A DNA stretch of 64,000 nt from Deltaproteobacteria bacterium RBG_13_43_22 (lineage in GTDB: Bacteria; Desulfobacterota; RBG-13-43-22): NCBI GenBank assembly GCA_001797675.1, contig MGQB01000001.1, positions 321,531-385,530 of the forward strand. Reading direction: 5' to 3'. Positions 1,842-21,998 of the stretch are shown here, one piece after another. How positions within the stretch are numbered: the first letter of the stretch is position 1; every line of letters starts with the position of its first letter. The position numbers and the translations under genes were made by a program. The notes beneath the pieces are model-generated. The model had not been told where the DNA came from and ran no database searches. It saw only the letters and a program-made list of their open reading frames with translations.

Positions 1842-3530
1842 TTATTGCTCCTCGATAAATTCGCTGATGCCTTTTCCGGCCGGGACCATGGGAGTGACAT
1901 TTTCTTCCGGGGCCACCCTAAAGTCGATTAAATAGGGTTCAGGATACGACAAAGCCTCTTCCAGGGCCGGGATGACCTCTTCCGAGGTTCGAACGACCTT
2001 TCCTTTGATCCCATACCCTTCGGCAACTTTGACAAATTCTGGGTTGAATTCAAAATGGGTCTGGGAATAGCGTTTGTCGCAAAAAAATTCCTGCCATTGG
2101 CGGACCATGCCCAGATAGCCGTTATTGAAGAGACATATCTTGACCGGGATATTATAGGTCCGGGCCGTAGCCAGTTCCTGGATGTTCATCTGAAAACTGC
2201 CGTCTCCGGAAATCACGACCACGGTTTTGTCCGGGCAACCCACCTGGGCCCCGATGGCCGCCGGGAAACCAAAACCCATAGTTCCCAATCCCCCTGAAGA
2301 AATAAAGGATCTGGGTTTGGTCGAGGTGATATATTGGGCCGCCCACATCTGGTGCTGTCCTACATCGGTGGCTACAATCAGTTCAGGGGTTTTTAAAGCA
2401 TTAACGCATTCCAAAATATATTGGGGCTTGAGTTCCCCTTCTTTCTTATAATGCAGGGGAAACTCCTTCCTCCACTGAGCGATCCGGTCCAGCCACTTTT
2501 TCCGTTCGATAAATTTGATTTTCCCCTGGATTTGTCCAAGGACGGTTTTCAAATCGCCCACGATAGGAATGTCTATATTGACCCTTTTACCGATTTCCGC
2601 CGGATCGATATCCACATGGATGATCCTGGCCTGGGGGGAAAATTTATTGACATCACCGGCTACCCGGTCATCAAATCGCACCCCCAAGGCCAGGACCAGG
2701 TCCGAATGATAAACGGAATAGTTGGCATAGCGGGTCCCGTGCATACCGAGCATGCCCAGGGAAAGGGGATCGTCTTCCGGGAAACTTCCCTTTCCCATCA
2801 GGGTGGTGGTAATCGGGATATTGGCCGAGCGGATAAAGGCCGCCAGTTCTTCGGTAGCCCCGGCCGAGATGACGCCGCCCCCCACATAGGCTACCGGTCT
2901 TTCGGCTTCCTTGACGGCCCGGATCATGGCCTCGATCTGTTTGGGATGCCCTTTAACCGTCGGATGGTAACTGGGGAGCTGAACTTCCTTGACCGGTTTG
3001 TATTTGGTGCGGGCCTCCTGGATGTCCTTGGGTATGTCCACCAAGACAGGCCCGGGCCGGCCGGTCCGGGCGATATAAAAGGCCTCTTTAAGAATCCGGG
3101 CTAGATCGTTTAAGTCTTTGACCAGGTAATTATATTTGGTGATCGGGATACTGATCCCGTAAATATCGGCTTCTTGAAAGCTGTCGTTACCGATCATGGA
3201 GGTGGCGACTTGTCCGGTCAAGGCCACCATCGGCACGGAGTCCATATAGGCATTGGCCAGACCGGTTACCAGATTGGTCGCTCCCGGCCCGGAGGTGGCG
3301 ATACAGACCCCCACCTTTCCGGTGGCCCGGGCATAGCCGTCGGCCGCATGGGCCGCGCCCTGTTCATGGCGGGTGAGGATGTGCCGAATAGGGCAATGAT
3401 AAAGGGCGTCATAAAGGGGGATGACCGCTCCTCCGGGAAAACCAAAGAGGACATCCACCCCTTCTTCCTGTAAAACTTCGACGATAATTTCAGAACCTTT
3501 TTTTAATCCCGAAGACATAATGCTAGGCAT
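1842..3530 (-). CDS. ilvB: Acetolactate synthase large subunit (ThDP-dependent)
   Basis: 562 aa protein with a ThDP-binding motif (GDGSFQMNIQELAT) and AHAS-type N-terminus. Confidence 0.9.
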   Translation of the reverse strand: MPSIMSSGLKKGSEIIVEVLQEEGVDVLFGFPGGAVIPLYDALYHCPIRHILTRHEQGAAHAADGYARATGKVGVCIATSGPGATNLVTGLANAYMDSVPMVALTGQVATSMIGNDSFQEADIYGISIPITKYNYLVKDLNDLARILKEAFYIARTGRPGPVLVDIPKDIQEARTKYKPVKEVQLPSYHPTVKGHPKQIEAMIRAVKEAERPVAYVGGGVISAGATEELAAFIRSANIPITTTLMGKGSFPEDDPLSLGMLGMHGTRYANYSVYHSDLVLALGVRFDDRVAGDVNKFSPQARIIHVDIDPAEIGKRVNIDIPIVGDLKTVLGQIQGKIKFIERKKWLDRIAQWRKEFPLHYKKEGELKPQYILECVNALKTPELIVATDVGQHQMWAAQYITSTKPRSFISSGGLGTMGFGFPAAIGAQVGCPDKTVVVISGDGSFQMNIQELATARTYNIPVKICLFNNGYLGMVRQWQEFFCDKRYSQTHFEFNPEFVKVAEGYGIKGKVVRTSEEVIPALEEALSYPEPYLIDFRVAPEENVTPMVPAGKGISEFIEEQ

Positions 3531-5776: not shown

Positions 5777-6433
5777 TTAAAATGATTCTTTTTTATAAGC
5801 CATCCCGATGAGCGGGTAAACGACCATACCGGAGAGGACGGCAATATCCTCGGCCGACAGGTATTTCGAGATGCTGGCATCAAAGAGAAGGTTGCCGTCG
5901 GGCGGAAATTCATCGTCTCCGGCCCAGAGAATCAGACAGACGGAAATTCGGGGGAAAACCTGAAAGCCCAGGGAGGCATCCCCTTCTTCCCGTTGTACTC
6001 CGCCCAGGCCGGTTCCCAGTTCGATTAGCAGTCCTGGATTTTTCCCAAAGGTCTGAACCAGAGGATCCTTGGCCCTTTTGGCAAAAGCCGAATAATAAAA
6101 TTCCCCGGAAGGGATTTCGCGGAAGGTGACCCAGGTATTGGTCAGAGGAGCACCCGTGGCCTGAATCAGGTAATGCATGATCAGTCCCTGTTCCTGGAGC
6201 GAGAGTTCTTTTGTGCCTTCAGGGGTAATCACTTCCCCCTCAGGCCAAGTGATTTGGATCTTCCGGTTGAGAAAAGGTAATTCAAGGACGGCCCCTTTTG
6301 TTTCCAGCTGATAAACCGTTCCACTGTTCCGGGCCAGGGCTTGCGGGTCTTTTTGTTTGAATGCCTCCCGGGCAATCTCCAGAGTGTTCTTATAATCGTC
6401 TACTCGGGGCATCGGGCTTCCTTTTGGCTGCAT
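5777..6433 (-). CDS. Conserved hypothetical protein (possibly DUF3786-like)
   Basis: 218 aa ORF in consistent coding context. It overlaps the cysKS 3' end by 34 nt. No recognisable catalytic motifs. Confidence 0.4.
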   Translation of the reverse strand: MQPKGSPMPRVDDYKNTLEIAREAFKQKDPQALARNSGTVYQLETKGAVLELPFLNRKIQITWPEGEVITPEGTKELSLQEQGLIMHYLIQATGAPLTNTWVTFREIPSGEFYYSAFAKRAKDPLVQTFGKNPGLLIELGTGLGGVQREEGDASLGFQVFPRISVCLILWAGDDEFPPDGNLLFDASISKYLSAEDIAVLSGMVVYPLIGMAYKKESF

Positions 6434-8784
6434 TGGGTGCAGATGGTCTTGTCTTTGAGATCGATCAGACGATAGCCCCGGGCGCAGATCTGATCCCGCA
6501 GCCGGTCGGCCTCGGCGAACTCTTTCCGCCGGCGGGCCGTTTCCCGGCGATTTAACAGGTTTTGCACTTCCACCGGCAACCCCGTTTCCGGGAAGTCCAG
6601 GATCTGCAATACTGAATTGACATTTCGCAGGACCTGGTCGATTTCCGTAAATTCCGAGGCTGAGATCCTTTTTCCCACCAGGATGGGATTGATGGCCCGG
6701 ACTAGTTTGAATAAGGCCGACAGGGCCAGGGCAATGTTCAGGTCATCATCCATAGCCTCCTTAAACTGGGTCTTAAAAAGGAAAAGGGTTTCTCCCACCT
6801 CGGCGGTTTCCTCCGAACCGGGCTGAACCGTATAGAGTTTTTGAATAAATTCATCCAGACGTTTTAAGGTCTTCCGTGAGGCCTCCAGGGACTTCAGGGT
6901 AAAGGCCAGGGGTTTACGGTAGTGGGTGGAAAGGAGCCAGTAGCGGATCTCGCGTCCGGTAAACCCCTGCTCCAGGATATCCCGCAAGGTCCGGGCATTG
7001 CCGGCGGCCCTGGACATCTTCTTTCCATCCACCATGACCAATTCGCTGTGCAGCCAATAATTGACGAATTTTTTCCCGCTGGCGGCTTCGCTGATGGCGA
7101 TTTCATTTTCATGATGGGGGAAAATCAGATCCACGCCGCTGGTATGGATGTCAAAGGTCTCTCCCAGGTATTTCTGGGCCATGGCTGAACACTCGATATG
7201 CCACCCCGGACGGACATTACCCCATTCGCTGGCCACATAAATTCCTTTTTTCAGTTCCGCCAGATTGGAGCGCTTGAGCAGCGTAAAGTCCCTGGGGTTG
7301 TCCTTCTCATATTCATCCAGGTCCACGGTTTTTCCCACCTGGATCTGTTTTAAATCCACCCGGGAAAGACGGCCGTAATCCTTAAACCGGGAGATGTCAA
7401 AATATAAGGATCGGAGTTTTTCATAGGCAAAGCCTTTGTTCAGTAACGTCCGGGTCAGGGCGAGCATGTCTTCCACATGTTCACTGGCCTTGGGATAATG
7501 GGCGGCCCGCTTGATTCGCAGGGTATCGATGTCTTTTAAGAATTCTTCCGCATAATAACCGGTAAACTCGTTTAAAGGCTGCCCTGCGGCCTCGGCCCCA
7601 AAAATGGTCCGATCATGCAAATCAGTGATATTCATGATATGGAAAACTTCCAGGCCCTTGAATTCCAGATAACGGCGCAGCAGGTCGGCCATAACAAACC
7701 GTCGGCAAGGACCCAGATGAAGCAGATTATCCACCGTCGGACCGCAGGAATAGATGGAGACTTTCCCTTCTTTTATCGGGACAAAAGCTTCTTTTTCCCG
7801 GGTCAGGGTATTATAAAAGACCAAGCCGGCCTTTTCCTTTTCCGCAAACAGGGTTGTGCTCAGATACCGTTCTCCTCCGTCCGGGCAGATGACCACGATC
7901 AGCCCTTTTTTCATATTTTGGGCCTGATGCAGGGCTGCGGCGACAGCCGCTCCGGAACTCATCCCCACCAGGAGCCCTTCTTCCCGGGCCATCTTCCGGG
8001 CGATATCAAAGGCTTCCTCGTCTTCCACATGCATTACTTCGTCCAGGATGCTTTTATCATAGATCCCCGGTTTATAGGATTCTTTCATGTTTTTGAGTCC
8101 CTGTATCTTATGGCCCAGATAAGGTTCCACCCCGATGATTTTAATGGCCGGATTCAATTCTTTCAGCCGCCGGGTCATACCCATCAGGGTTCCGGTGGTC
8201 CCCATGGTGGCCACGACCATGGTCACCTTACCTTTGGTTTGTTCCCAGATTTCCAGCCCTGTGCCCTGGTAATGGGCGTCGATATTGTCCGGATTGTTAA
8301 ATTGATCGAGAAGGCAGTATTGGTCCGGATGCTCCCGGGCCATCTGATACACCGTTTCGATGGAACCGTCGGTCCCCTGGTGGGCCGGGGTCAAAAGGAG
8401 CCTGGCCCCGTAAGCCTTGAGGATCTTTTGCCGTTCCACACTGGCCGATTCAGGCATGGTCAACAGGAGAGGATAACCTTTGACGGCCGCCACCATGGCC
8501 AAACCGATTCCGGTGTTTCCGGAAGTGGCTTCGATGATGGTCTTGCCTCTGGTCAGGACTCCGCTTTTTTCCGCGGACTCGATCATAGACAGGGCGATGC
8601 GGTCCTTGACCGATCCCCCGGGATTAAAGGATTCTATTTTAGCCCAGAGGGTTACCTTTTTATTGGGATTCAACCGGTTCAATCGGACCAGGGGTGTATG
8701 ACCGATCAGTTTTAGGATGTCGGGATAAGCCTGTTTCATGACCTTACTGCTTTCTTTTGGTTTTCTTTTTATTGATTCGTTCAT
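6400..8784 (-). CDS. Fusion protein: cysteine synthase (O-acetylserine sulfhydrylase, PLP) N-terminal domain plus cysteinyl-tRNA synthetase-like C-terminal domain
   Basis: Residues 16-320 match CysK/CysM (GHTPLVRLN, PGGSVKDR, GNTG, SSGAAV). Residues 325-794 align end to end with CysRS, including zinc ligands (YSCGPT, WHIECSAM, HHENE) and the anticodon-binding region (DDDLNIALALSALF). The class-I motifs are altered: HIGH reads HLGP and KMSKS reads KMSRA. The probable start is the internal ATG at 8739 (MKQAYPDILKLIGHTPLV). Confidence 0.8.
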   Translation of the reverse strand: MNESIKRKPKESSKVMKQAYPDILKLIGHTPLVRLNRLNPNKKVTLWAKIESFNPGGSVKDRIALSMIESAEKSGVLTRGKTIIEATSGNTGIGLAMVAAVKGYPLLLTMPESASVERQKILKAYGARLLLTPAHQGTDGSIETVYQMAREHPDQYCLLDQFNNPDNIDAHYQGTGLEIWEQTKGKVTMVVATMGTTGTLMGMTRRLKELNPAIKIIGVEPYLGHKIQGLKNMKESYKPGIYDKSILDEVMHVEDEEAFDIARKMAREEGLLVGMSSGAAVAAALHQAQNMKKGLIVVICPDGGERYLSTTLFAEKEKAGLVFYNTLTREKEAFVPIKEGKVSIYSCGPTVDNLLHLGPCRRFVMADLLRRYLEFKGLEVFHIMNITDLHDRTIFGAEAAGQPLNEFTGYYAEEFLKDIDTLRIKRAAHYPKASEHVEDMLALTRTLLNKGFAYEKLRSLYFDISRFKDYGRLSRVDLKQIQVGKTVDLDEYEKDNPRDFTLLKRSNLAELKKGIYVASEWGNVRPGWHIECSAMAQKYLGETFDIHTSGVDLIFPHHENEIAISEAASGKKFVNYWLHSELVMVDGKKMSRAAGNARTLRDILEQGFTGREIRYWLLSTHYRKPLAFTLKSLEASRKTLKRLDEFIQKLYTVQPGSEETAEVGETLFLFKTQFKEAMDDDLNIALALSALFKLVRAINPILVGKRISASEFTEIDQVLRNVNSVLQILDFPETGLPVEVQNLLNRRETARRRKEFAEADRLRDQICARGYRLIDLKDKTICTQCSQKEARCPE

Positions 8785-9119: not shown

Positions 9120-10949
9120 TTATTCCACCGTTACACTCTTGGCCAGGTTGCGGGGCTGATCTACGTCGGTCCCCCGCAAGACGGCAATATGATAAGCCAG
9201 CAATTGCATGGGGATAGAATAAATAATCGGGGAAAGCCCCCATCCCACCCTGGGGAGGCGGATTTGTTCCTGGGCTTTAAATTCCTGCCGAGTCCCTTTT
9301 TCTTCATCCGTAAAAGAGATAATGATCCCTCCGCGGGCCCTCACCTCTTCCATATTGCTGAACACCTTCTCCTGAATATCGTTTTGGGGGACCAGAAAAA
9401 CCGTGGGCATCTTCTCATCAATCAGAGCGATGGGACCATGTTTCATTTCACCGGCCGGATATCCTTCGGCATGGATATAAGAGATTTCTTTTAATTTCAA
9501 GGCCCCTTCCAGGGCAATGGGGTAATGGATGCCCCGGCCCAGAAATAAAAAATCCTGGGCCTGAAAATACTTCTGGGCAATAGCCTGAATCTGGTCTTCC
9601 CCCTCCAAAACCTGCTCGATTCCATGGGGGATGCGTAGCAATTCCTGGATCATGGCCAGCCGGTCTTTCCGGGTAATCTTTTTAAGAGTTTGACCGAAAT
9701 ATAGAGTCATCAGAAAAAGGGCCGTCAACTGGGTGGTAAAGGCCTTGGTCGAGGCCACTCCTATTTCCGGGCCGGCATGGGTATAGATCACCCCGTCGGC
9801 CTCCCGGGCAATACTGCTCCCTACGACATTACAGACAGCCAAAACCCTGGCCTTTTTCTTTTTGCCCTCCCGTAAGGCGGCCAGGGTATCGGCCGTCTCT
9901 CCGGATTGGGAAATCAGGATCAGCAGGGTCTTGGGATTGACGATCGGATTCCGGTAACGGTATTCCGAGGCATAATCCACGGCTGTGGGGATGCGGCAAT
10001 ATTCTTCCAGAAGAAATTTGCCGACCAGGGCTGCATGCCAGGCCGTTCCGCAGGCAACGATATGGACCTGATCGATCTCTTTTAATTCCTCGGCGGTCAA
10101 GCCGATTTCCGGCAGGAGGACCTCCCCTTTTTCCGGTGAAACCCGGCCGCGAAAGGTATCGATAATCGCCTGGGGTTGTTCGAAGATCTCTTTCTGCATG
10201 AAATGTTTATAGCCGGCCTTTTCGGCCATGACCGGGCTCCAGGTGATCTTCTGGACTTCCTTTTTAATTATTTTCTTTTTTAAAGAAAGGATCCGGGGAA
10301 AGGGTTTCTCAATTACAGCCATTTCTCCGTCTTCGAGATAAATGACCCGGCTGGTATGATGGAGAAAGGCCAGAACGTCGGAGGCAATAAAAAATTCCCC
10401 TTCCCCAATCCCCACGATCAAGGGACATTCTTTTCGGACGGCCACGATCCGATCCGGGTCCTGGCTGTCCATGATAACCAACGCATAAGAGCCTCGGATC
10501 TTTTCCTGGGCCGTTTGAACGGCTTGAACCAAATCCTGACCTTTTATATATTTGTCGATTAGATGAGCGACAATCTCAGAATCGGTTTCCGATGAAAATT
10601 GACAACCTTCAGCCGAGAGTTGTTTTTTAAGATCCAGATAATTTTCGATGATCCCGTTATGGACCAGAGCGATCCGTCCGGCTACATGGGGATGGGCATT
10701 GGTCTCCGAGGGCCGGCCGTGGGTGGCCCAGCGGGTATGTCCGATACCGATCCGGCCGGAAACAGGGCTTTGGGAAAGAAGACGGCCCAATTCACTGAGT
10801 TTGCCCTGGCTCCGACGCACCTCAAAGTGTTCGTTTTGGATCAGGGCGATTCCAGCCGAATCATAGCCCCGGTATTCCAATTTTTTTAACCCTTCAAAAA
10901 TGACCTCAACGGGATTTTGAGGACCGAGGTATCCGATAATACCGCACAT
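9120..10949 (-). CDS. glmS: Glutamine--fructose-6-phosphate aminotransferase
   Basis: 609 aa protein with MCGIIGY Ntn-amidotransferase start, two SIS domains and the C-terminal VTVE typical of GlmS. Confidence 0.95.
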   Translation of the reverse strand: MCGIIGYLGPQNPVEVIFEGLKKLEYRGYDSAGIALIQNEHFEVRRSQGKLSELGRLLSQSPVSGRIGIGHTRWATHGRPSETNAHPHVAGRIALVHNGIIENYLDLKKQLSAEGCQFSSETDSEIVAHLIDKYIKGQDLVQAVQTAQEKIRGSYALVIMDSQDPDRIVAVRKECPLIVGIGEGEFFIASDVLAFLHHTSRVIYLEDGEMAVIEKPFPRILSLKKKIIKKEVQKITWSPVMAEKAGYKHFMQKEIFEQPQAIIDTFRGRVSPEKGEVLLPEIGLTAEELKEIDQVHIVACGTAWHAALVGKFLLEEYCRIPTAVDYASEYRYRNPIVNPKTLLILISQSGETADTLAALREGKKKKARVLAVCNVVGSSIAREADGVIYTHAGPEIGVASTKAFTTQLTALFLMTLYFGQTLKKITRKDRLAMIQELLRIPHGIEQVLEGEDQIQAIAQKYFQAQDFLFLGRGIHYPIALEGALKLKEISYIHAEGYPAGEMKHGPIALIDEKMPTVFLVPQNDIQEKVFSNMEEVRARGGIIISFTDEEKGTRQEFKAQEQIRLPRVGWGLSPIIYSIPMQLLAYHIAVLRGTDVDQPRNLAKSVTVE

Positions 10950-13188: not shown

Positions 13189-14403
13189 TTAATAAATCAC
13201 CTCTTCCTTTTCAAGCTCCGCCATCTCTTCCCCGGACAGGCCGAGCATCTGCCCAAAAATTTCTTCGTTGTGCTCCCCAAGCAATGGAGAATGACGCTGT
13301 ATCCGGGCCGGGGTTTCCGAAAACCGCCAGGGAGGGCCGACAACCCAATCCTTTCCCATAACAGGATGATCTACTTGGAAATATACTCCCCGTGCTTGTA
13401 GGTGAGGATCCTGAAAGAGCCCTTCCGAACTCAATGACGGGGCAGAACCTACCCCTGCTTCTTGTAATACTTTGGTGACTTCATAATAATCCCGGTCCAT
13501 GGTCCATTGGTTAATAATCTCGTCCAGTACCCCCTGATTTTTAAGTCTGCCTTTAGAAGAAGAAAACCTGGCATCCTCCATCAATTCCGGCTTCCCCATG
13601 ACCCGGCAAAGGGCCTGCCATTCCTCATCAGTGGCCACGGCAATACTGACCCAGTTATCCTCCCCTTGGCAGCGGTAGCAATTATGAGGCGCCAGGACCT
13701 CATCCTTATTGCCTTTTCGCCCGGCCACCCTGTGGTTCATGAAATAATCCAAAAATAAATCTCCGGCCAGAACCGCAATGGTCTCCTGAGAGGCCAAGTC
13801 GATATACTGTCCTTCCCCGGTCCTCTGACGATAGATCAAGGCGGCCAGTATAACAAAGGTTGAGGTGGTTGCGCTGCGAAGATCCATGGACCCCATAAAG
13901 TTGCTGGGCGGCCAGTCCTCATAGCCGGTAATATGGGAAACACCACCCAGGGCGGCAAAAGTCGGGGCGTAACCCACATATTCTCTCTCCGGTCCGGTTT
14001 GGCCGCAAGACGACGAGGAAAGGTAAATCAGGTCGGATTTGATATCCCTCAACACCTCATATCCCAAACCTAACCTCGGGATTACGCCGGGTCTCATATT
14101 CTCCATGACCACATCGCTTACCCGTACCAGTTGTTTGGCGATTTCAACCGCCTTCGGTTTGGACAAGTTCAGAGTAACGCTTTTTTTGTTCAGATTAAGA
14201 TTATTGAAAACGGAAGATTCATTCGGGCCTGAAAATCTTCTGCCGGTACTGAAGGAAAGATTTCTGGCGTGGTCCAGTCTCCTTCGACTTTCTACTTTAA
14301 TGACCTCGGCTCCAAGAAACCCCAACAAACAGGTGGCATAAGGGCCGGCCCAGGCCGAGGTGAATTCCGTAACACGAATTCCCGCTAACGGTCCATTATT
14401 CAT
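13189..14403 (-). CDS. CoA-transferase family III (CaiB/BaiF/Frc-like)
   Basis: 404 aa protein with N-terminal motif LAGIRVTEFTSAWAGPYATCLLGFLGAEVIKVE typical of family-III CoA-transferases. Confidence 0.8.
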   Translation of the reverse strand: MNNGPLAGIRVTEFTSAWAGPYATCLLGFLGAEVIKVESRRRLDHARNLSFSTGRRFSGPNESSVFNNLNLNKKSVTLNLSKPKAVEIAKQLVRVSDVVMENMRPGVIPRLGLGYEVLRDIKSDLIYLSSSSCGQTGPEREYVGYAPTFAALGGVSHITGYEDWPPSNFMGSMDLRSATTSTFVILAALIYRQRTGEGQYIDLASQETIAVLAGDLFLDYFMNHRVAGRKGNKDEVLAPHNCYRCQGEDNWVSIAVATDEEWQALCRVMGKPELMEDARFSSSKGRLKNQGVLDEIINQWTMDRDYYEVTKVLQEAGVGSAPSLSSEGLFQDPHLQARGVYFQVDHPVMGKDWVVGPPWRFSETPARIQRHSPLLGEHNEEIFGQMLGLSGEEMAELEKEEVIY

Positions 14404-14533
14404 TCATGGCTCCTTTATAAATCCCAAATTAGGTTTTTTAAAACGAAACAAAACGATTTTGAAATATTTTGGTTAACGGTTAAAATCGATTGTTTCAATC
14501 AACAACAACCCGAAACACGAAACCCGCAACGGG

Positions 14534-15748
14534 TTAAAAAACCCCCTCGTTTTTAAGGGCGGCCAGTTCTTCGTTGGAATATCCCAAATGACGGCCATAG
14601 ATCTCCTCATTGTGTTCACCCAGCATAGGGGCGGCCTGGACCAGTTGCCAGGGTGTTTTTGAAAAACGATAGGCCGAGGAAGGAAAGGGGATTTTTCCCA
14701 AGACCGGGTGCTCCAAATCAACAAAAAAATTTCTGGCCTTGAATTGTTCCGAATGATAAATGTCCTCCGCAGTATTTACCGGCGCGATGGGGCAGCTTAA
14801 AGCCTGCCCCCTGCGGAATATCTCTTCTTTGGTATGTTGCATGGTCCACTCCATAATCCATTCATTGATTTGGCCGGCATTCTCTGACCGGACTAAAGCA
14901 TTTTGACAACCATCCTCTTTGGCCCACTCCGGATCGCCGATTAGTTTAACCAGGGCCTGCCATTGATGCTCCTCCGGCATTACAACCACGATATAGCCGT
15001 CCTTACAAGGCATGATACCGCCGGGCATCCGTCTGACCTGATCGCCACCCCGGCTTATGACCACCTGGTCGTTAGCGAAGGTAACACTCTCCACCCGCTG
15101 CATGGACATCAGGGCCTCCTGTTTCGACATTTCGATGTACTGTCCCTTGCCGGTCAGGACCTTCCAATAGAAAGCGGCGGTGACGGCTACTACAGCCACG
15201 AGTCCTACGTCAAATCCGCTGCTGTGACCGCCGACCTTGACCGGTGGACGGTCCATGTCCAGAGCGGGGATGGGCAGCAAATATCCCTGGCCGCTGACGT
15301 GAACGGTGTTGAGTTGGTAGGCCTTATAATCCTTAAAGGGACCGCGATCTCCATAGGGGGTGATGGATATCATGATCAGACCGGGATTAAGGCTCTTGAG
15401 CTTTTCATAGCCCAGATCCAAGGCCTCCAGTTCACCCGGGGGCCGGTCCTCAATGAGCACATCCGTTTTTTCAACCAGTTTTTTAAAGATCTTTTTCCCT
15501 TCCGGTTTTTTAACGTCCAGCGTCAGGCCTTTTTTATTGCTGTTCAAATAGAGAAACAGTCCGCTTTTTTCCTGATGGGGGATATCTCCCGGGAACGGAC
15601 CCCGTCTTCTGGAATCATCACCGGTGTGGGGCGGCTCAATTTTAAGAACCTCGGCGCCCATATCGGCTAATAGTTTGGAACAATAGGGTCCGCTGACCAT
15701 ATTACAATATTCTACGATCTTCATGCCCTCCAGGGCCCTTGGGGTCAT
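14534..15748 (-). CDS. CoA-transferase family III (paralog)
   Basis: 404 aa protein with LEGMKIVEYCNMVSGPYCSKLLADMGAEVLKIEPP. Tandem paralog of the 13189..14403 gene. Confidence 0.8.
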   Translation of the reverse strand: MTPRALEGMKIVEYCNMVSGPYCSKLLADMGAEVLKIEPPHTGDDSRRRGPFPGDIPHQEKSGLFLYLNSNKKGLTLDVKKPEGKKIFKKLVEKTDVLIEDRPPGELEALDLGYEKLKSLNPGLIMISITPYGDRGPFKDYKAYQLNTVHVSGQGYLLPIPALDMDRPPVKVGGHSSGFDVGLVAVVAVTAAFYWKVLTGKGQYIEMSKQEALMSMQRVESVTFANDQVVISRGGDQVRRMPGGIMPCKDGYIVVVMPEEHQWQALVKLIGDPEWAKEDGCQNALVRSENAGQINEWIMEWTMQHTKEEIFRRGQALSCPIAPVNTAEDIYHSEQFKARNFFVDLEHPVLGKIPFPSSAYRFSKTPWQLVQAAPMLGEHNEEIYGRHLGYSNEELAALKNEGVF

Positions 15749-15867
15749 TGACTTCCTCCTTCAAACAAAATAATTCTCCGTCACATCGAAAATCTTTTCC
15801 GTGTGCCCGTTTTTGATGGTTGGCGATGCCTGCTTATCGTTCTTGTTTATAAGATTACCCCTCTTTT

Positions 15868-18123
15868 TTATACGGCCTCAACTCTGCATCGAATATAACG
15901 GTGATAAGGGGTCCCGGCCAGGCGATCCCGATGAGTGTTTTTAGCCAACCTGTTCGCATTCGCTCCATATACTTTCCCCTGATGCACCAGGCCGAATCCA
16001 TGGGGTATCACCAGGTAACCGGGCCTGGTCACTTCCGTGACTTCAAGTTCGATTGTTTCTTCCCCGGCTTCGGTGGTCACTTTAACCATCTGGCCGTCAC
16101 TGAATCCGAACTTCGCCGAATCCTTCGGGTGCATAGTCGCCGTACAAGCCCGTTTCCCTTTGTTCCAGTCGGGATCGCGCATCTGCGTATTGGCATTCAC
16201 ATCCCAGTGCCGTCCGGAGGACATGACCAATGGGTATGCTTCCCCGTCTTCACTCAGTCGGTTCAGTTCCGGTACCGGTTCAATTTCCTCAAGCCATTGT
16301 CCCATCTCGGGTACATCCAGGTTGATACGTCCATCCTCGGTAGCCAATGACTTAAAATGGTCCCATGTTTTAGAATCGACTGAACCAATCCACAAACCTT
16401 CGGGATGTTCAAGGGTCGCTTTAAAAATATCTTCCCCAAGAGTGGGGGTTGGCTTGAGCCCTTCCCGTTCGGCTATTTCCTGAAATGAGGTCGGCAGGCT
16501 TTGCAAAGACCCCCAAAGGGATGCCAAATGAACCGAATCCAATTTTTTCCCCAGGGTTTTCCCCAAAATATAGGGCAAACTTCTTACGACCGCAGGATTA
16601 GTTTTTAAATATTGTGTCAGAGCCATCCCAAATTTTAACCGGTCTCCGCTATCGACTGCTCTATACAGTGTTTCAGGAATGTCGGGGACCAAACCCAAAC
16701 GGTCGGCTATTCGCAGGAATATTTCTCCGGCTTCGAGTCGTTCTCCTTCCGGGGTGAGGGCCGGATGTCGAACCTGCATGAATATCTTTGGGAAATCTCT
16801 TCTCATGCCCCCATCCCAGGATTCATACCCTGACCGGACTGGAAGAATATAATGGGATAGGGTGGCCGTTTCGGTCATGGCCAATTCCATGGTAACCAAA
16901 AGGTCCAGACGTTTGAAGGCCTTTTCATAGACGGAGGTATCGGCATAGGATCTTAGTGGGTTGGCGGTGCTCACAATCACTGCACGAAGTCGTTCGGGGT
17001 GGTCCGACAATATCTCTTCGGGCATCGCATTCGGGGGATAAACATTGTTGATGGCCGGAAAATTCGTCACCAGGGTTCGCCACATACGAGCCTCGCGTTC
17101 ATCGGGAGTTTCCTTTTTTCTCCTGCCATCGCGCGTATTAGCTGGAAAAATATTACCACCCTCAACCCCAATCCGCCCGCTGACCGCCCGAAGCACATTC
17201 TCAAGATAGGAGATAAGCGTGCTGTGACGGTTCAAAAGTACACCCAGGTCGCTGTGATGGCTGGATTTACGGGTTGTAAACAGCCGGCAGATCTCTTTCA
17301 CCTTACCATAATCCAGTTCGCAGACCTCAAGGGCGGCTTTGGCGTCAAAACCGGCAAACCAGCTCTGAATCTTATCGAAGCCGTTAACGTGTTTTTCGAT
17401 ATATTCCTGGTCGTGCCACCCTTCTTTAAGAATGATGGATATCATCGCCCGGTAGAAAAGGGCATCCGTTCCCGGGCGGATGGGCAGGTGAATATGGGCG
17501 ATCTTGGCCGTCTCTGACAGGCGCGGATCAACGACCACCAACAACTTATCCGGGTCCTTACTGAATTTTGTGAGTACCCGGCGGGCCTGGGGGGTGTGAT
17601 GGCTCATCATCGGATTCCAGCCCACGAGTAAAAGCATATCGGTTTCATCAAGGTCCGGGTGGGTATGGAGGTTCTGATCGCCATAGGTTTTTCCATCCAC
17701 CCAAAATCTGCCGGTAAGCTCTTGAGCCAGGGCGGTATAAAAATACTGAGACCCCAACCCCCGAAGCAGATTAAACGCAAAGGGACCCTGCGCCGGACAA
17801 CCGATACTGCCGTTTCCCATCATCAAGGCCAGAGATCGCGGACCGTGTTCATTGACCATGTCGGAGAGTTTTGCGGCGATTTCGTCAATGGCCTGCTCCC
17901 AGGAGATTCTTTCAAATGAACCCCCCACCCTCTTAAGCGGATGCATCAGACGGTCGGCATGGTGCTGATAGAATTTGATGTTCAACCCCTTGCGGCAGGC
18001 ATACCCCTCGCTGAGCGGGTTGTCCTTGTCTCCGCGCACCTTAATGATTTGATTGTTCTCGACTCGAACCTCGAGTCCGCACTGATTGCCTCATAATACA
18101 CAGGATGTCTTTTTCCATTCCAT
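15868..18123 (-). CDS. Molybdopterin (MopB/DMSO reductase family) oxidoreductase, predicted selenoprotein with in-frame UGA at codon 11
   Basis: The ORF track starts at GTG 18039 (RGDKDNPLSEGYACRKG). The in-frame upstream sequence encodes MEWKKTSCVL-TGA-GNQCGLEVRVENNQIIKV, completing the N-terminal C-x2-[C/U]-x3-C-x27-C Fe-S motif of MopB proteins. The ATG at 18123 is preceded by a GAGGAGG ribosome-binding site. The TGA lies at 18091-18093. No Tat signal is present, so the protein is cytoplasmic. Confidence 0.75.
18058..18093 (-). promoter_or_regulatory. UGA codon plus SECIS-like stem-loop (GACUCGA-GGU-UCGAGUC) beginning 13 nt downstream of the UGA
   Basis: On the minus strand: TGA GGCAATCAGTGCG GACTCGA GGT TCGAGTC GAG. 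A perfect 7-bp stem with GGU in the apical loop, as in bacterial SECIS elements. Confidence 0.55.
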
Positions 18124-18207
18124 GGTAAAATCCTCCTCTTAATGGGATGATCTGGAGTGTGTCTTGGTTTTGATTAAATAGAATTTTAATCGGGCCTGTC
18201 CGTCATA

Positions 18208-18223
18208 GGTTTGTAGGCAAACA
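18208..18223. promoter_or_regulatory. Second related half-palindrome GGTTTGTAGGCAAACA (13/16 match to the 18700 site), candidate operator upstream of the MopB selenoprotein gene
   Basis: Located in the 5' leader/promoter region of the MopB gene (ATG 18123). Shares the TTTGTA..CAAACA half-sites with the 18700 palindrome. Confidence 0.4.
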
Positions 18224-18267
18224 TTAGAGTGATAACCATCCTTCCCCGTCCTTTCCCCGGCCTTTCC

Positions 18268-18690
18268 TTAGACGATCTCTAAAAGCAATCGCCGTAAAAG
18301 GATCCGTTCTTCCAGGGTGAATCGGGAAAGCAAAATTTCATTGGCTTTTTCCCGTTCTTTAACCAGTCTTTTTCTTAAATCATTCGCTTTCTTTGAGGGG
18401 AGGAGTCGAACAATCCGTTTATCCCCCTTATCCCGCTGCTTCTTTATCCAGCCACCCTCGTCCATCCGGTCAAGGATCCCGGAAAGAGTGGCCTTATCAA
18501 TACTGAGCAGTTCACCCAGTTCAGCAGCTTTTATTTTTTCCTTTTGCCAAAGAACCTCCAACACCAAATATTGAATATTGGTCAATTTGTAGGGTTTGAG
18601 GCGGGTCTGAACAAGTCCATGGGCCTTCTGATAGGCCTTGGCCAGGAGAAAAATATAGCAATCCGTATTGATCAGTAAATTTTCAGGCAT
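18268..18690 (-). CDS. MarR family transcriptional regulator
   Basis: 140 aa winged-helix protein (LTNIQYLVLEVLWQKEKIKAAELGELLSIDKATLSGILDRMDEGGWIKKQRDKGDKRIV). Confidence 0.85.
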   Translation of the reverse strand: MPENLLINTDCYIFLLAKAYQKAHGLVQTRLKPYKLTNIQYLVLEVLWQKEKIKAAELGELLSIDKATLSGILDRMDEGGWIKKQRDKGDKRIVRLLPSKKANDLRKRLVKEREKANEILLSRFTLEERILLRRLLLEIV

Positions 18691-18699
18691 AGCATGATT

Positions 18700-18715
18700 T
18701 GTTTGTATACAAACA
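18700..18715. promoter_or_regulatory. Perfect 16-bp palindrome TGTTTGTATACAAACA, candidate MarR operator
   Basis: Lies 10 bp upstream of the MarR start codon, in the divergent promoter region shared with the ACD-like gene. Confidence 0.5.
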
Positions 18716-18982
18716 TATCAAGGGGTTTACTCTAAGTCAATCCCAAAATCGGCCCATCCTGCAGCCGGTTTACGATTTTCCGAAAACCTGGATGTTTTGA
18801 ACCGTTCGGTAGAGTGGATCGCCGATGACCTTGATCCCGGATTTCTTATTTTTTCATTGACTCCGGTCCCTGATCCGATTAAATTTATTTCCTTCTCAAA
18901 AGAAACGTTATCACCTATTTCAAGAGGGTTATCAAAGGATACCGTTAGACTTCAGAAGAATTTGTATTAAAGGGACGTTTAT

Positions 18983-20425
18983 ATGTCTGAGCCTATTTTG
19001 CAGGAGTTACATTATCTTTTTCACCCCAAAAACATCGCCGTGGTCGGCGCATCCCCCAAGTCCGACCCCATGATGATGAATCAGGGGAACAACTATATCA
19101 AAGGTTCCATTGAACAGAATTTTTCAGGGAAAATATTTCCGGTTCACCCAGGGGCCAAAGCCATCCTTGGATTTCAGGCCTTTCCACGAGTCCGGGATAT
19201 CCCTGATTCGGTGGATCTGGTCATCTTCACCGTTCCGGCTGAGGCGTCTGTGGAGGTCATGAAGGATTGTGTCGAAAAAGGGGTGAAATTCGTCCATCTC
19301 TATACGGCGGGCTTCGGCGAATCCGGGCGGGAAGCTTTCGTGAAAATGGAAAAAAAACTGATCGATATGGCCCGAAAGAACGGCATACGGATTGTCGGAC
19401 CGAATTGTATGGGAATCTACTGCCCGGAAGGTGGTTTGGCTTTTCAGCCCTTTTTTCCTACGACACCCGGTCCGGTGGGATTTTTTTCCCAGAGCGGTCA
19501 AATGGCCGGGATGTTTGTCATGAATGCCGCGGCCCAAGGTTTGAGGTTCAGTAAGGTAGTCAGTTTTGGAAATGCCAGGGATTTAAAAGCCCATGATTTT
19601 CTAAACTACCTGGCCCAGGATGAGAAAACAAAAATCATCGGATCCTACCTGGAAGGATTGGAAGACGGAAGGTCCTTTATAGAAGCAGCCCGGAAAATAA
19701 CGCAAAAAAAGCCCATGGTTATTTTTAAAGGCGGGTTGACCGAAGGAGGATCCCGGGCGGCCATGTCTCATACGGCGGCGATCGCCGGTTCGTCCCGGAT
19801 TTGGAGGGCCTTATGCCGTCAGGCCGGGATCATTTCCGTGACCTCTCTGGAGGAGTTGGTTTTCACGCTTTCCGCTTTACAGAGGATGCCGTTACCCGGA
19901 GGAAAGAACATGGTCATTCTCGGCGGGGCCGGAGGCGGAAGCGTCACCATGACCGATCAAGCCGAAGCCGAAGGGCTTAAAGTACCCCAGCTTTCACCAG
20001 AGACTATCCGGCAGCTCGAAACCATCGTGCCCCCTCAGGGCACGAGTGTGAAAAATCCCCTGGACGTGGGAAGGCGTTTTTTCGCCGAGGGGAATTTTCC
20101 CAAAATTCTGGAACTGCTCCGGGACGATCCCAACGTCGATGCCCTGATCTTCATGCAGCCCATTGCCATGTTCAGTCGATTTGGCGGCCGGGCCGGAATA
20201 AGCATGCTCCTAAAAATGACCATTGCCGGGCAAAAAATTTTAAAGAAACCAATGGTTCTTGTGGTAGAAAAAAATGACGGGTTCGGCGGTGACCGTATTG
20301 TGAAAGAAGCAATTGAGCGGTATCATGCCGCCCATCTGGCCACCTTTCCCGATTTTCGGCTGGCCGTCCGGGTGACCGGTTATCTGGCCGAATATCAGGC
20401 CTTCTTGGATCGGCAGGAAGGTTAA
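18983..20425 (+). CDS. Acyl-CoA synthetase (NDP-forming) alpha-like, CoA-binding/ligase-CoA domain protein
   Basis: 480 aa protein with N-terminal CoA-binding Rossmann motif (NIAVVGASPKSDP..IFPVHPGAKAILGFQAFPRVRDIPDSVDLVIFTVPA..RIVGPNCMGIY), as in ADP-forming acetyl-CoA synthetase alpha subunits. Confidence 0.7.
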   Translation: MSEPILQELHYLFHPKNIAVVGASPKSDPMMMNQGNNYIKGSIEQNFSGKIFPVHPGAKAILGFQAFPRVRDIPDSVDLVIFTVPAEASVEVMKDCVEKGVKFVHLYTAGFGESGREAFVKMEKKLIDMARKNGIRIVGPNCMGIYCPEGGLAFQPFFPTTPGPVGFFSQSGQMAGMFVMNAAAQGLRFSKVVSFGNARDLKAHDFLNYLAQDEKTKIIGSYLEGLEDGRSFIEAARKITQKKPMVIFKGGLTEGGSRAAMSHTAAIAGSSRIWRALCRQAGIISVTSLEELVFTLSALQRMPLPGGKNMVILGGAGGGSVTMTDQAEAEGLKVPQLSPETIRQLETIVPPQGTSVKNPLDVGRRFFAEGNFPKILELLRDDPNVDALIFMQPIAMFSRFGGRAGISMLLKMTIAGQKILKKPMVLVVEKNDGFGGDRIVKEAIERYHAAHLATFPDFRLAVRVTGYLAEYQAFLDRQEG

Positions 20426-20549
20426 ATCCGGGAGAAAACAAGGTTGATAGGCTGAAGACTGAAGGTTGTTAGTGCCTTTAGCCTTTACTTTCGTTCTTCA
20501 GCCTTCAGTCTTGGATCATTTCTTCTCCCAACACATTCGGATTATAAAA

Positions 20550-21998
20550 ATGGAGACACGTATGTCCTTTCAGGAACTGGAAACCATTTTACACCCCCGG
20601 TCAGTGGCCGTAGTCGGCGCTTCGGTCAATACTTTTTCATTCGGTTACAGTTATGCCCATCATCTGGTGGAGTATGGTTTTAAGGGACCGATCTACCTGG
20701 TCAATCCCAACTATCCGGAAATCGTTGGATTGAAAACCTACCCCAGTGTGCGGGATATTCCGGGACCGGTTGATTTCGCCATTTCCTGCGTCAACGCTTC
20801 TCAGGTGACCGCTATGCTGGAAGATCTGGCGGAGAAAAACGTTAAATGTGTACACTTATACACCGCCCGCTTTAGTGAAACCGGCCGGCAAGATGCCGCC
20901 GAACTGGAACAAACCGTACTGACACTGGCTCGCCGCAAAGGTATTCGCCTCATCGGCCCGAACTGCATGGGTGTTTATTATCCCCAAATGGGGCTCTCTT
21001 TCGGTTTTAATCTCCCCAAGGATTCCGGCCCCGCAGGTATGATCTCCCAATCCGGAGGCGGTGCCTCCGGTTTTGTGCATCTGGCCTCTTTGCGGGGAAT
21101 CCGGTTCAGCAAGGTCATCAGCTACGGCAATGGCCTGGATCTGACTGAATGCGATTACCTGGATTATTTTATTCAGGATAGAGAAACCAAAATCGTCCTT
21201 CTTTATGTCGAAGGGGTAAAAGACGGCCGGCGGTTTTTTGATACGCTAAGTCGGGCCGCCCGGGTCAAACCGGTGATCGTTATGAAGGGCGGCCGGGGCC
21301 AGGCCGGCTCACGGATGACCTTTTCTCACACCGCATCTTTGGCCGGTTCTTTTCCGGTTTGGGAAGCCTTGGTCAAGCAGGCCGGGGCTGTTTCGGCGGG
21401 TGATTTTGATGAGTTGATCGACCTGACAGTAGCATTTCGTTTTTTGCCGCAGGTGACCGGAAAGCGGGTCGGTGTCATCGGCGGCGGGGGCGGTCCCAGC
21501 GTTATTGCCGCCGAAGAGTGTGAAGAATCGGGACTGGAAGTGATCCCTATCCCTCAGGATATGCGTAAAGAACTCAAGGACCGGGGAGTCAACATCTGGG
21601 ACTGGATCAGCAATCCTGTGGATCTCTCGATTGTCGCCGGTTCGGGAGTTACGGATATCGATATGCTTCACCTCATGGGCAAGCATCCGGCATTCGATAT
21701 ACTCATGGCCAATGTCAACGAATGGGTCTTCATGACCCTGGCCTCGGATGAAAGATTCCTGGGTATGAAAAACCAGGTAAAAAACCATATCAGCCTGAGG
21801 GATACCTACCCTAAACCTTTCGTGGTGATCTTCGGGGAACGGGGGGTCATCACTGGGGAACAGGATAACTGGCGCTGGAAAGTGATTGCCGAAGCGCGGG
21901 AAGAGTTGATCGGGGCCGGGATGGCCACTTTTCCGACTTTCAGACGGGCGGCCATCGCCGTACGAAAAGTGCAGGAGTACTTCGCCGGATTGGATTAA
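20550..21998 (+). CDS. Acyl-CoA synthetase (NDP-forming) alpha-like paralog
   Basis: METRMSFQELETILHPRSVAVVGAS...RLIGPNCMGVYYPQ. The start is moved to the ATG at 20550, in register with the paralog's N-terminus. The ORF track's 20466 start is an upstream extension. Confidence 0.7.
   Translation: METRMSFQELETILHPRSVAVVGASVNTFSFGYSYAHHLVEYGFKGPIYLVNPNYPEIVGLKTYPSVRDIPGPVDFAISCVNASQVTAMLEDLAEKNVKCVHLYTARFSETGRQDAAELEQTVLTLARRKGIRLIGPNCMGVYYPQMGLSFGFNLPKDSGPAGMISQSGGGASGFVHLASLRGIRFSKVISYGNGLDLTECDYLDYFIQDRETKIVLLYVEGVKDGRRFFDTLSRAARVKPVIVMKGGRGQAGSRMTFSHTASLAGSFPVWEALVKQAGAVSAGDFDELIDLTVAFRFLPQVTGKRVGVIGGGGGPSVIAAEECEESGLEVIPIPQDMRKELKDRGVNIWDWISNPVDLSIVAGSGVTDIDMLHLMGKHPAFDILMANVNEWVFMTLASDERFLGMKNQVKNHISLRDTYPKPFVVIFGERGVITGEQDNWRWKVIAEAREELIGAGMATFPTFRRAAIAVRKVQEYFAGLD

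Follow-up and report, generated by a model that had tools for sequence, protein, structure and literature searches.

Six neighbouring genes in the genome of Deltaproteobacteria bacterium RBG_13_43_22 raise the question of whether adjacency in a single genome suffices to define a pathway. The genes lie between positions 13189 and 21998 of a 64,000-nucleotide (nt) stretch of contig MGQB01000001.1, which we call the window and in which all our coordinates are given. They encode two family-III coenzyme A (CoA) transferases (CoAT1 and CoAT2), a MopB-superfamily enzyme of the molybdenum/tungsten (Mo/W)-bis(pyranopterin guanine dinucleotide) (bisPGD) type, a MarR-family regulator, and two paralogous proteins (ACD1 and ACD2) of the alpha type of nucleoside-diphosphate (NDP)-forming acyl-CoA synthetases; gene content was checked by a listing of open reading frames (ORFs) and by Pfam scans. 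A preliminary description had read all six as one catabolic module under the control of MarR. Our comparison of the window proteins with 80 genome loci and 34 metagenome loci carrying MopB orthologs, the latter all of the selenocysteine (Sec) type, leads to a different reading, namely that the region probably consists of two modules of separate ancestry, a marR-mopB cassette having been inserted into an older pair of operons for CoA esters. Moreover, the enzyme on the cassette is itself predicted to be a selenoprotein, with its Sec in an iron-sulfur (FeS) motif.

The comparison of neighbourhoods carries most of the weight. Not one mopB ortholog has a CoA-transferase gene beside it, whether in the 80 genome loci or in the 34 from metagenomes. 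ACD genes adjoin mopB in none of the 34 either, and in the genome loci ACD-like genes occur near it only as distant paralogues (31-37% identity, six of 80). The co-conservation across related genomes that had been set beforehand as the mark of one module is absent, relatives of the CoAT and ACD genes being found without marR or mopB, and the single MarR-controlled module is not supported. What does hold is a conserved unit of the CoA-transferases and the ACD-like proteins with each other. In L084, L083 and L123, whose CoAT2 is 85%, 84% and 75% identical to ours, ACD2-ACD1 diverges from CoAT2-CoAT1 across about 270 base pairs (bp) with neither marR nor mopB between them, and L084 also retains the synteny with dCTP deaminase and glmU. 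A CoAT1 ortholog follows CoAT2 in all five ortholog loci that we read; three of these five have the ACD pair without mopB, and the other two have the CoAT pair without ACD genes.

The regulator and the MopB enzyme, for their part, travel together. In at least 12 genome loci mopB is preceded, on its own strand, by an ortholog of marR, and the closest relatives of the enzyme (83% and 80% identity) keep the MarR-MopB pair in other contexts, next to a multihaem cytochrome or to a ferredoxin-like gene, a methyltransferase and two acyl-CoA dehydrogenases. Clustering of the neighbours shows that the context of mopB is otherwise very variable across loci. Those that recur are MarR, or instead of it a TetR regulator best matching the acrylate regulator AcuR (under its cut-off), an FmdE-plus-zinc-finger protein, a ferredoxin-domain protein of 330-435 residues, a FabK-like flavin mononucleotide (FMN) protein, an aldo-keto reductase with FeS motifs, MoeA-like proteins, and a second MopB paralogue. 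This second paralogue (about 26% identity) is found directly downstream of the Sec- or Cys-type gene in L011 (12265-13617), L014 (4143-5495), L086 (605-1957), L109 (4148-5497) and L110 (6091-7443), and upstream of such loci there are often a MarR gene, a ferredoxin-domain protein and a FabK-like gene.

The edges of the cassette can be located by alignment with the relatives. Window positions 15775..15700 align, within an intergenic alignment, with the ribosome-binding site and start of CoAT2 in L084, while positions 18846-18863 align with an element conserved on the ACD side in L083, L084 and L123. Between the two anchors lie about 110 bp in the relatives and 3.1 kilobases (kb) here. Since CoAT/ACD relatives exist without marR and mopB, and since mopB has no CoA-transferase beside it in any of the other loci compared, we read marR-mopB as an insertion of about 3.1 kb in a divergent promoter region; the inserted segment would run from 15776 to 18845 and takes in marR, mopB and two operator-like palindromes. 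Several observations weigh against this account. We found neither terminal direct or inverted repeats nor mobility genes around the insertion, and insertion is preferred to repeated loss by parsimony alone, as the simplest history. Distant ACD-like genes (35% identity) do adjoin mopB in L015 and L034. Finally, with no terminator-like site in the 119 nt between mopB and CoAT2, and with the ancestral promoter region of the CoAT genes displaced, read-through could now place the CoA-transferases under MarR.

Could the inserted cassette have since been recruited, so that in this lineage alone the six genes now make up one MarR-controlled pathway, in which the CoA-transferases and ACD-like ligases handle the CoA ester or acid on which the Mo enzyme acts? 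The mopB, CoAT2 and CoAT1 genes do lie on one strand, 119 and 130 nt apart, and the first gap, as noted, is free of terminator-like sites; the arrangement in L015 and L034 fits such a pathway too. In addition, an AT-rich palindrome that the relatives carry upstream of ACD1 was not found anywhere in the window, so control of the ACD operon has been remodelled. On the other side stand the 114 other MopB loci, not one of which has a CoA-transferase, the three relatives in which the CoAT/ACD module does without MopB, and the recurrent partners of MopB, which are regulators, FmdE, ferredoxin-like and FabK-like proteins rather than CoA enzymes. Some 150 bp separate the first operator from the ACD promoter-like site, and about 0.7% of the flanking ORFs are ACD-like, our estimate of a chance level in these genomes. 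We therefore give little credence to a single lineage-restricted pathway. The minus-strand operon proposed earlier stands as far as the shared strand goes; a weak terminator-like hairpin lies in the 130-nt gap between CoAT2 and CoAT1, and we regard a MopB-CoAT2-CoAT1 operon as possible, not as established. If the region does hold two modules of separate ancestry, adjacency in one genome has misled, and pathway predictions built on the apparent catabolic module would be wrong.

What enzyme, then, does the cassette bring? The mopB gene (15868..18123, minus strand) encodes 751 residues with PF04879, PF00384 and PF01568 when translated through an in-frame UGA. This codon, at 18093..18091 on the same strand, is codon 11 and takes the place of the second Cys of the N-terminal motif C-x2-C-x3-C-x27-C (C8-x2-[U11]-x3-C15-x27-C43; Pfam Molybdop_Fe4S4). 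A Shine-Dalgarno sequence AGGAGGA with the ATG at 18123 (18121..18138, minus strand) precedes it by 10 codons. The FeS motif begins at residue 8, which leaves no room for a Tat signal and upholds the cytoplasmic location proposed earlier. The enzyme had also been called Sec-containing, rightly by our evidence; the Sec codon is not at the Mo-ligand position, codon 11 falling in the [4Fe-4S] motif instead.

That UGA is read as Sec is indicated by its recurrence. Among the 80 genome loci, whose orthologs are 57-80% identical, seven others have TGA at codon 11 and the rest have a Cys codon, TGY. A pattern scan of metagenome contigs gave 37 matches, of which 34 are orthologs with the identical in-frame TGA and with the frame conserved on both sides of it, bringing the total from genomes and metagenomes to 29 distinct UGA-bearing sequences; the N-terminal peptide M-x-WKKT-x-C-x-L is conserved among the orthologs. 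In a neighbour-joining tree the Sec forms are confined to one clade of 36 tips (24 Sec, 12 Cys), within which sister pairs differ in Sec versus Cys, and all 60 tips outside it are Cys.

Downstream of the UGA lies a hairpin that resembles a bacterial Sec insertion sequence (SECIS). In the window it reads GACUCGA-GGU-UCGAGUC (18061..18077, minus strand) and begins 13 nt past the UGA. All 29 Sec forms can form a hairpin of 7-8 bp with a GGU or GGA loop beginning 17-20 nt past the UGA, in one of two registers. At least six of the seven hairpin pairs are present in 29 of 29 Sec-type as against nine of 71 Cys-type sequences (Fisher p=1e-17), and the mean hairpin energy is -9.1 for Sec versus -6.1 kcal/mol for Cys forms (p=1e-7), where both p-values overstate independence because the UGA-bearing sequences are mutually related. 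None of the 16 close Cys-type relatives has six or more of the pairs. The loop is encoded by a Val codon, which is GTT in 25 of the 29 Sec forms and in eight of the 71 Cys forms. In the main register, with 18 distinct sequences, pairing extends to 95% of the hairpin cells, where slid controls reach 62% at most, and one pair is compensatory, with C-G, U-G and U-A variants. In L021, L087, L090, L093, L097, L099, L108 and L117 we saw the alternative register, an 8-bp stem UGCGGACU/AGUUCGCA with a GGA loop, moved 4 nt upstream; a single coding segment thus yields two different SECIS hairpins in different lineages. The bacterial SECIS consensus, a stem-loop soon after the UGA with G at the first positions of a small apical loop, is described in PMC13188914, and the MopB hairpin fits it.

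Not everything speaks for Sec. Covariation in the hairpin is modest, the observed score being reached by 36 of 500 shuffles, and the genes selA, selB and selD and a tRNA-Sec were not found within the 64-kb window. Folded as a single sequence the region is not significant (z=-0.5), the signal having arisen from the comparison of Sec with Cys orthologs, and an Rfam scan returned two tRNA-Ser genes only, without a match to a SECIS family. One could accordingly suppose that UGA is a true stop and the gene a pseudogene, or that a truncated enzyme without the FeS domain starts from a GTG at 18039; gene callers indeed annotate a product of 723 residues, and the lack of Sec machinery in the window would agree. 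This supposition has to contend with the strong Shine-Dalgarno sequence and ATG ahead of the UGA, the 10 upstream codons and the remainder of the FeS motif kept in frame across all 29 sequences, a hairpin strictly tied to UGA, and Cys at position 11 in the orthologs, and we find it scarcely credible. Nor has the code been reassigned, since UGA, a rare stop here, still ends four of 37 window genes (TAA ends 24 and TAG nine). We conclude, on this comparative evidence, that MopB residue 11 should be selenocysteine.

The inventory of May 2026 counts 119 prokaryotic selenoprotein families or subfamilies, and its only entries with the MopB fold are FdhA and FwdB, with the motif UHxP (PMC13188914); by that inventory, a MopB protein with Sec in the FeS motif is unlisted. 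Public gene calls for Sec-type members (P0001, P0002, P0004, P0034, P0041, P0044 and others) begin downstream of the UGA, at lengths of 723, 706 or 650 residues, and lose the Fe4S4 domain. Because the calls begin past the UGA, the family is systematically mis-annotated, and the subfamily is routinely met as a 723-residue protein without an FeS domain.

What would Sec do at an iron-sulfur site? Most likely Sec11 ligates the proximal [4Fe-4S] cluster. Throughout the family the four Cys positions of this cluster, FS0, do not vary, the match to the Pfam Fe4S4 domain runs from end to end, and Cys and Sec swap freely between sister sequences, which suggests an equivalent role. These same facts argue against a second view, in which Sec11 is not a simple ligand and instead forms a selenylsulfide relay with Cys8 (Cys8-x2-Sec11) or has a direct catalytic part at the proximal cluster or next to it. 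That view can draw on CxxU being a classic redox motif (Table 1, PMC13188914), on the Cys-Sec bridge now proposed for Sec197 of HdrA of M. maripaludis (PMC13518236), on the MopB-family Xsr enzymes, which catalyse at a [4Fe-4S] cluster without the molybdenum cofactor (Moco) (PMC13524816), and on the Glu found here at the canonical Mo-ligand position. We judge it unlikely. The Salmonella enzymes Xsr1A-3A are MopB sulfate reductases that are Moco-independent, with the FS0 cluster reported as the catalytic site (PMC13524816). In a clade that has Glu in place of Cys, Sec, Ser or Asp and that has repeatedly placed Sec at the second FeS Cys, one might imagine that the cluster or the Cys8-Sec11 pair is directly catalytic in the manner of Xsr; we rate this stronger proposal as quite improbable, and were it true, the molybdoenzyme superfamily would have its first case of a natural selenocysteine at a catalytic iron-sulfur centre. 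The Sec/Cys sister pairs offer ready natural material for the question of what selenium contributes at an iron-sulfur site, which the HdrA and Xsr papers leave open.

The identity of the enzyme within the superfamily can be narrowed by exclusion. Membership itself is clear, the Fe4S4, Molybdopterin and Molydop_binding domains scoring 54.6, 99.5 and 58.7 bits against Pfam cut-offs of 22.7, 24 and 26.8, and Foldseek giving a probability of 1.0 to many MopB structures; below that level no NCBIfam cut-off is reached, and no characterised enzyme is assigned. Among solved structures there is no close relative; the best profile matches in the PDB are F420-dependent formate dehydrogenase (FDH; 9t1s_L, 4.9e-54), acetylene hydratase (2e7z, 1.9e-52) and FdhF of the hydrogen-dependent CO2 reductase (HDCR; 7qv7_S), with 1aa6 also among them. 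An AlphaFold2 model made for the Cys-type ortholog P0005 (pLDDT 76) has a generic MopB fold, with its best TM-score to acetylene hydratase (0.70/0.72) and 17-21% identity to every match.

It is the metal-ligand loop that discriminates. The loop reads A-Q-E-L-T-G, with Q134-E135 at the Mo-ligand position and invariant in 77 of 77 genome orthologs, and the spacing G-x10-E-x12-G equals that around the Sec/Cys of FDH and around Cys141 of acetylene hydratase. Glu at the canonical ligand position excludes both formate dehydrogenase and acetylene hydratase as its identity. For the former, Gln-Glu replaces Sec/Cys-His (UHxP), and the TIGR01591 (FDH-alpha) score is 222 bits, far under the cut-off of 666; for the latter, Cys141 aligns with Glu135, and Gly or Ala instead of Asp follows Cys/Sec11. 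Nitrate reductase was ruled out on ligand residues and curated cut-offs. In acetylene hydratase the Cys is the ligand to W, and Asp13, which follows the second FeS Cys, reaches the active site, so that the FeS loop is near the metal. By alignment Glu135 is a candidate metal ligand, at a place where the P0005 model is unreliable, with low confidence around residues 121-137 in the ligand loop.

A wider search of 1.84 billion cluster representatives, of which 106 were aligned (P0361-P0510), shows how far the feature extends. Aligned with the Mo ligand, the nearest full-length clusters (32-51% identity) carry Glu, most of the more distant ones Asp (the loops SQDCNNK and TIDQSAK are examples) and a few Cys, and every intact N-terminus keeps the C-x2-C-x3-C spacing, nearly always followed by Gly. 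By this pattern MopB belongs to a large uncharacterised cytoplasmic clade with an acidic residue at the ligand position. Literature searches returned nothing specific on this MopB family or on a Glu ligand in MopB enzymes. What is noteworthy, in our view, is an unlisted selenoprotein subfamily within this Glu-type clade, carried on a two-gene cassette that appears to regulate itself.

The regulation of the cassette can be read from its palindromes. The regulator gene (18268..18690, minus strand; 140 residues, PF01047 E=4e-15) lies 144 nt upstream of mopB and runs in the same direction. It is divergent from the ACD genes, as described before, and co-directional with, not divergent from, mopB. 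The first operator-like palindrome (18695..18720) has the core TGTTTGTATACAAACA at 18700-18715, a perfect 16-mer whose arms extend to 13 nt; it overlaps the promoter-like site of marR (18740..18712) and stands 10 nt upstream of the marR start. The second (18208..18223; GGTTTGTAGGCAAACA) reads TGTTTGCCTACAAACC on the minus strand, with one mismatch to TGTTTG-N4-CAAACA. They are the only two matches with at most one mismatch in 64 kb, where 0.13 would be expected. Both had been reported at these places and assigned to divergent promoter regions, which holds for the first, in the marR/ACD intergenic region, and fails for the second, between marR and mopB.

The exact TGTTTG-N4-CAAACA was not found in orthologous loci with up to two mismatches. 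Direct inspection, on the other hand, reveals a related GTTYGTATACRAAC palindrome upstream of marR in L007, L019, L031, L032 and L039 and upstream of mopB in L019, L031, L043 and L070. Palindromes at matching places in orthologous loci amount to a phylogenetic footprint of a predicted MarR operator with marR and mopB as its regulon, and the earlier suggestion that they are MarR operators gains support from this. Autoregulation is likewise to be expected of a MarR protein (PF01047, 55.8 bits) whose palindrome covers its own promoter-like site. The ACD promoter-like site, TTGACT-17-TAAATT (18857-18885), lies with the conserved element of the relatives in 18846..18885 on the plus strand, where a promoter scan placed it. 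In the cassette-less relatives the AT-rich palindrome just upstream of ACD1 reads ATAATATTATAATTATAATATTAT in L083 (~3160-3190) and L084 (~9740-9775), and is only partly kept in L123 (likewise ~9740-9775).

As to what MarR senses, the regulator has an N-terminal Cys, Cys11, and the Cys in the helix-1 motif D-C-[YI]-[IV]-F-L-L is invariant in 12 of 12 MopB-linked MarR proteins, one of them only about 32% identical. Its best NCBIfam match is OhrR (NF052638, 4e-14), at 52.5 bits far under the cut-off of 200, and we do not assign it to these one-Cys sensors of organic peroxide. Compared with OhrR sequences, the invariant Cys is about two residues off the OhrR position. Sensing through a thiol is possible. 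More generally, a conserved operator with its MarR provides a handle on the inducer, and thereby on the substrate, of a large uncharacterised Glu-type clade.

We turn to the older module. The tandem CoA-transferases, present as described, are CoAT2 (14534..15748, minus strand, 404 residues, PF02515 E=1.8e-94; identical at 100% to A2Y79_13680 of the same bacterium), which is the first gene of the pair, and CoAT1 (13189..14403, minus strand, 404 residues, PF02515 E=5e-106), which is the second. They are 31% identical to each other and score 355 (CoAT1) and 317 bits (CoAT2) against the full family-III profile. The named equivalogs are out of reach, CoAT1 with 240 bits against a cut-off of 504 (TIGR03253) and CoAT2 with 238 against 442 (NF003809). 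Benzylsuccinate CoA-transferase, 9fn0, is the best PDB match of both (CoAT1 to 9fn0_B, 1.9e-64; CoAT2, 1.5e-54). CoAT1 has an Asp at the canonical spacing before TGxGQ. For CoAT2 we considered a degenerate subunit without the catalytic Asp and dropped the idea, since its orthologs hold an invariant Asp two residues beyond the canonical spacing. The two are probably the subunits of a heteromeric family-III CoA-transferase, as their pairing and divergence suggest. A CoAT2/CoAT1 pair of 65% identity occurs in L085 (6298-19925) among a B12-dependent mutase, MeaB, two BcrAD/BadFG-type activators, two HGD-D proteins, ferredoxins and an enoyl-CoA hydratase, and these neighbours may hint at the substrate class of the transferase, pointing towards 2-hydroxyacyl, methylmalonyl-type or alicyclic CoA esters.

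The two ACD-alpha-like proteins are likewise where they had been placed, on the plus strand: ACD1 (18983..20425; 480 residues; PF13380, PF13607 and PF19045, with no ATP-grasp domain) and ACD2 (20562..21998; 478 residues; PF13380 and PF13607), whose ORF opens at 20466 and whose start follows the gene call in L001. They are 37% identical to each other and keep the phosphohistidine motif, SHTAAIAGS in ACD1 and SHTASLAGS in ACD2, that marks the alpha type. The best PDB match of ACD1 is 2csu (2.5e-80), and it scores 366 bits against the TIGR02717 cut-off of 567. The ATP-grasp beta subunit had been reported missing, and our scan of the cluster genes and of 10 more window ORFs found none; no ATP-grasp domain is fused to an ACD protein in the window or in the 120 closest homologs. 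Literature searches brought up nothing specific on a module of CoA-transferases plus ACD proteins.

How might the two modules work? In the older one, the divergent operons ACD2-ACD1 and CoAT2-CoAT1 would act together on acyl-CoA esters, the transferase exchanging CoA between acids and the synthetase, with an ATP-grasp partner encoded elsewhere, coupling one thioester to ATP. Cycles of acetate:succinate CoA-transferase and succinyl-CoA synthetase work in this manner, and by analogy we infer a transferase-plus-synthetase cycle for the ATP-coupled turnover of acyl-CoA esters. Into the promoter region of about 270 bp between these operons the marR-mopB cassette would have been inserted. MarR would bind the two 16-bp palindromes, one over its own promoter and one ahead of mopB, until a ligand or oxidant releases it and ends the repression of marR and mopB. 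The induced enzyme would be a cytoplasmic Mo/W-bisPGD oxidoreductase with the motif C-x2-U-x3-C-x27-C, its UGA decoded with the help of the hairpin 13 nt downstream, and it would be fed through the FS0 cluster, which Sec11 would ligate, with the invariant Glu at the canonical metal-ligand position. The substrate is the weakest step of this scheme: from the regulators and neighbours, we put forward very tentatively, and with more doubt than conviction, the reductive handling of a small electrophile or xenobiotic.

The flanks of the region carry housekeeping or unrelated genes, namely glmS, glmU, and those for a secreted protein with the metallo-beta-lactamase fold, a dCTP deaminase and a YeiH-like membrane protein. 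Elsewhere in the window, at 6400-8784 on the minus strand, an ORF of 794 residues fuses an N-terminal pyridoxal-phosphate (PLP)-dependent domain (PALP, cysteine-synthase-like) to a complete cysteinyl-tRNA synthetase, and a DUF3786 gene comes next after it.

How does the locus compare with systems that are known? As in BbsEF (9fn0), adjacent genes encode a diverged pair of CoA-transferase subunits; CoAT1/2 differ from BbsEF, Frc, SUGCT and YfdW in missing every NCBIfam equivalog cut-off and in having no bss or bbs genes nearby. ACD1/2 share the domain order and the SHTAxxAGS motif with the alpha part of the archaeal ADP-forming acyl-CoA synthetases (2csu, 4xyl), and depart from them in their conserved paralogous pairing, their TIGR02717 score and the absence of ATP-grasp from the proteins scanned. 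The regulator recalls OhrR-type thiol-sensing MarR proteins in its invariant helix-1 Cys and in a palindromic operator over its own promoter. Acetylene hydratase of Pelobacter acetylenicus (2e7z) is, like our enzyme, a single-subunit cytoplasmic MopB protein with an FS0 cluster, from which MopB is set apart by the residues discussed above. Xsr1A-3A provide a precedent for chemistry at the very cluster that holds Sec here; they are, however, DmsA paralogues that work outside the cytoplasm and have B and C subunits and a Ser ligand, and the functional parallel is a speculative one. With the catalytic subunits of formate dehydrogenases (FdhF/FdhH, the F420-dependent enzyme and FdhF of HDCR) MopB shares the fold, the N-terminal [4Fe-4S] domain, the cytoplasmic site and membership of a Sec-using family, at an identity of about 20% and with Sec in the FeS motif rather than at the Mo ligand. 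Finally, FdhA and FwdB resemble MopB in superfamily, in the interchange of Sec and Cys and in a SECIS hairpin downstream of the UGA, while the position of the Sec, and likely its role, distinguish MopB from both.

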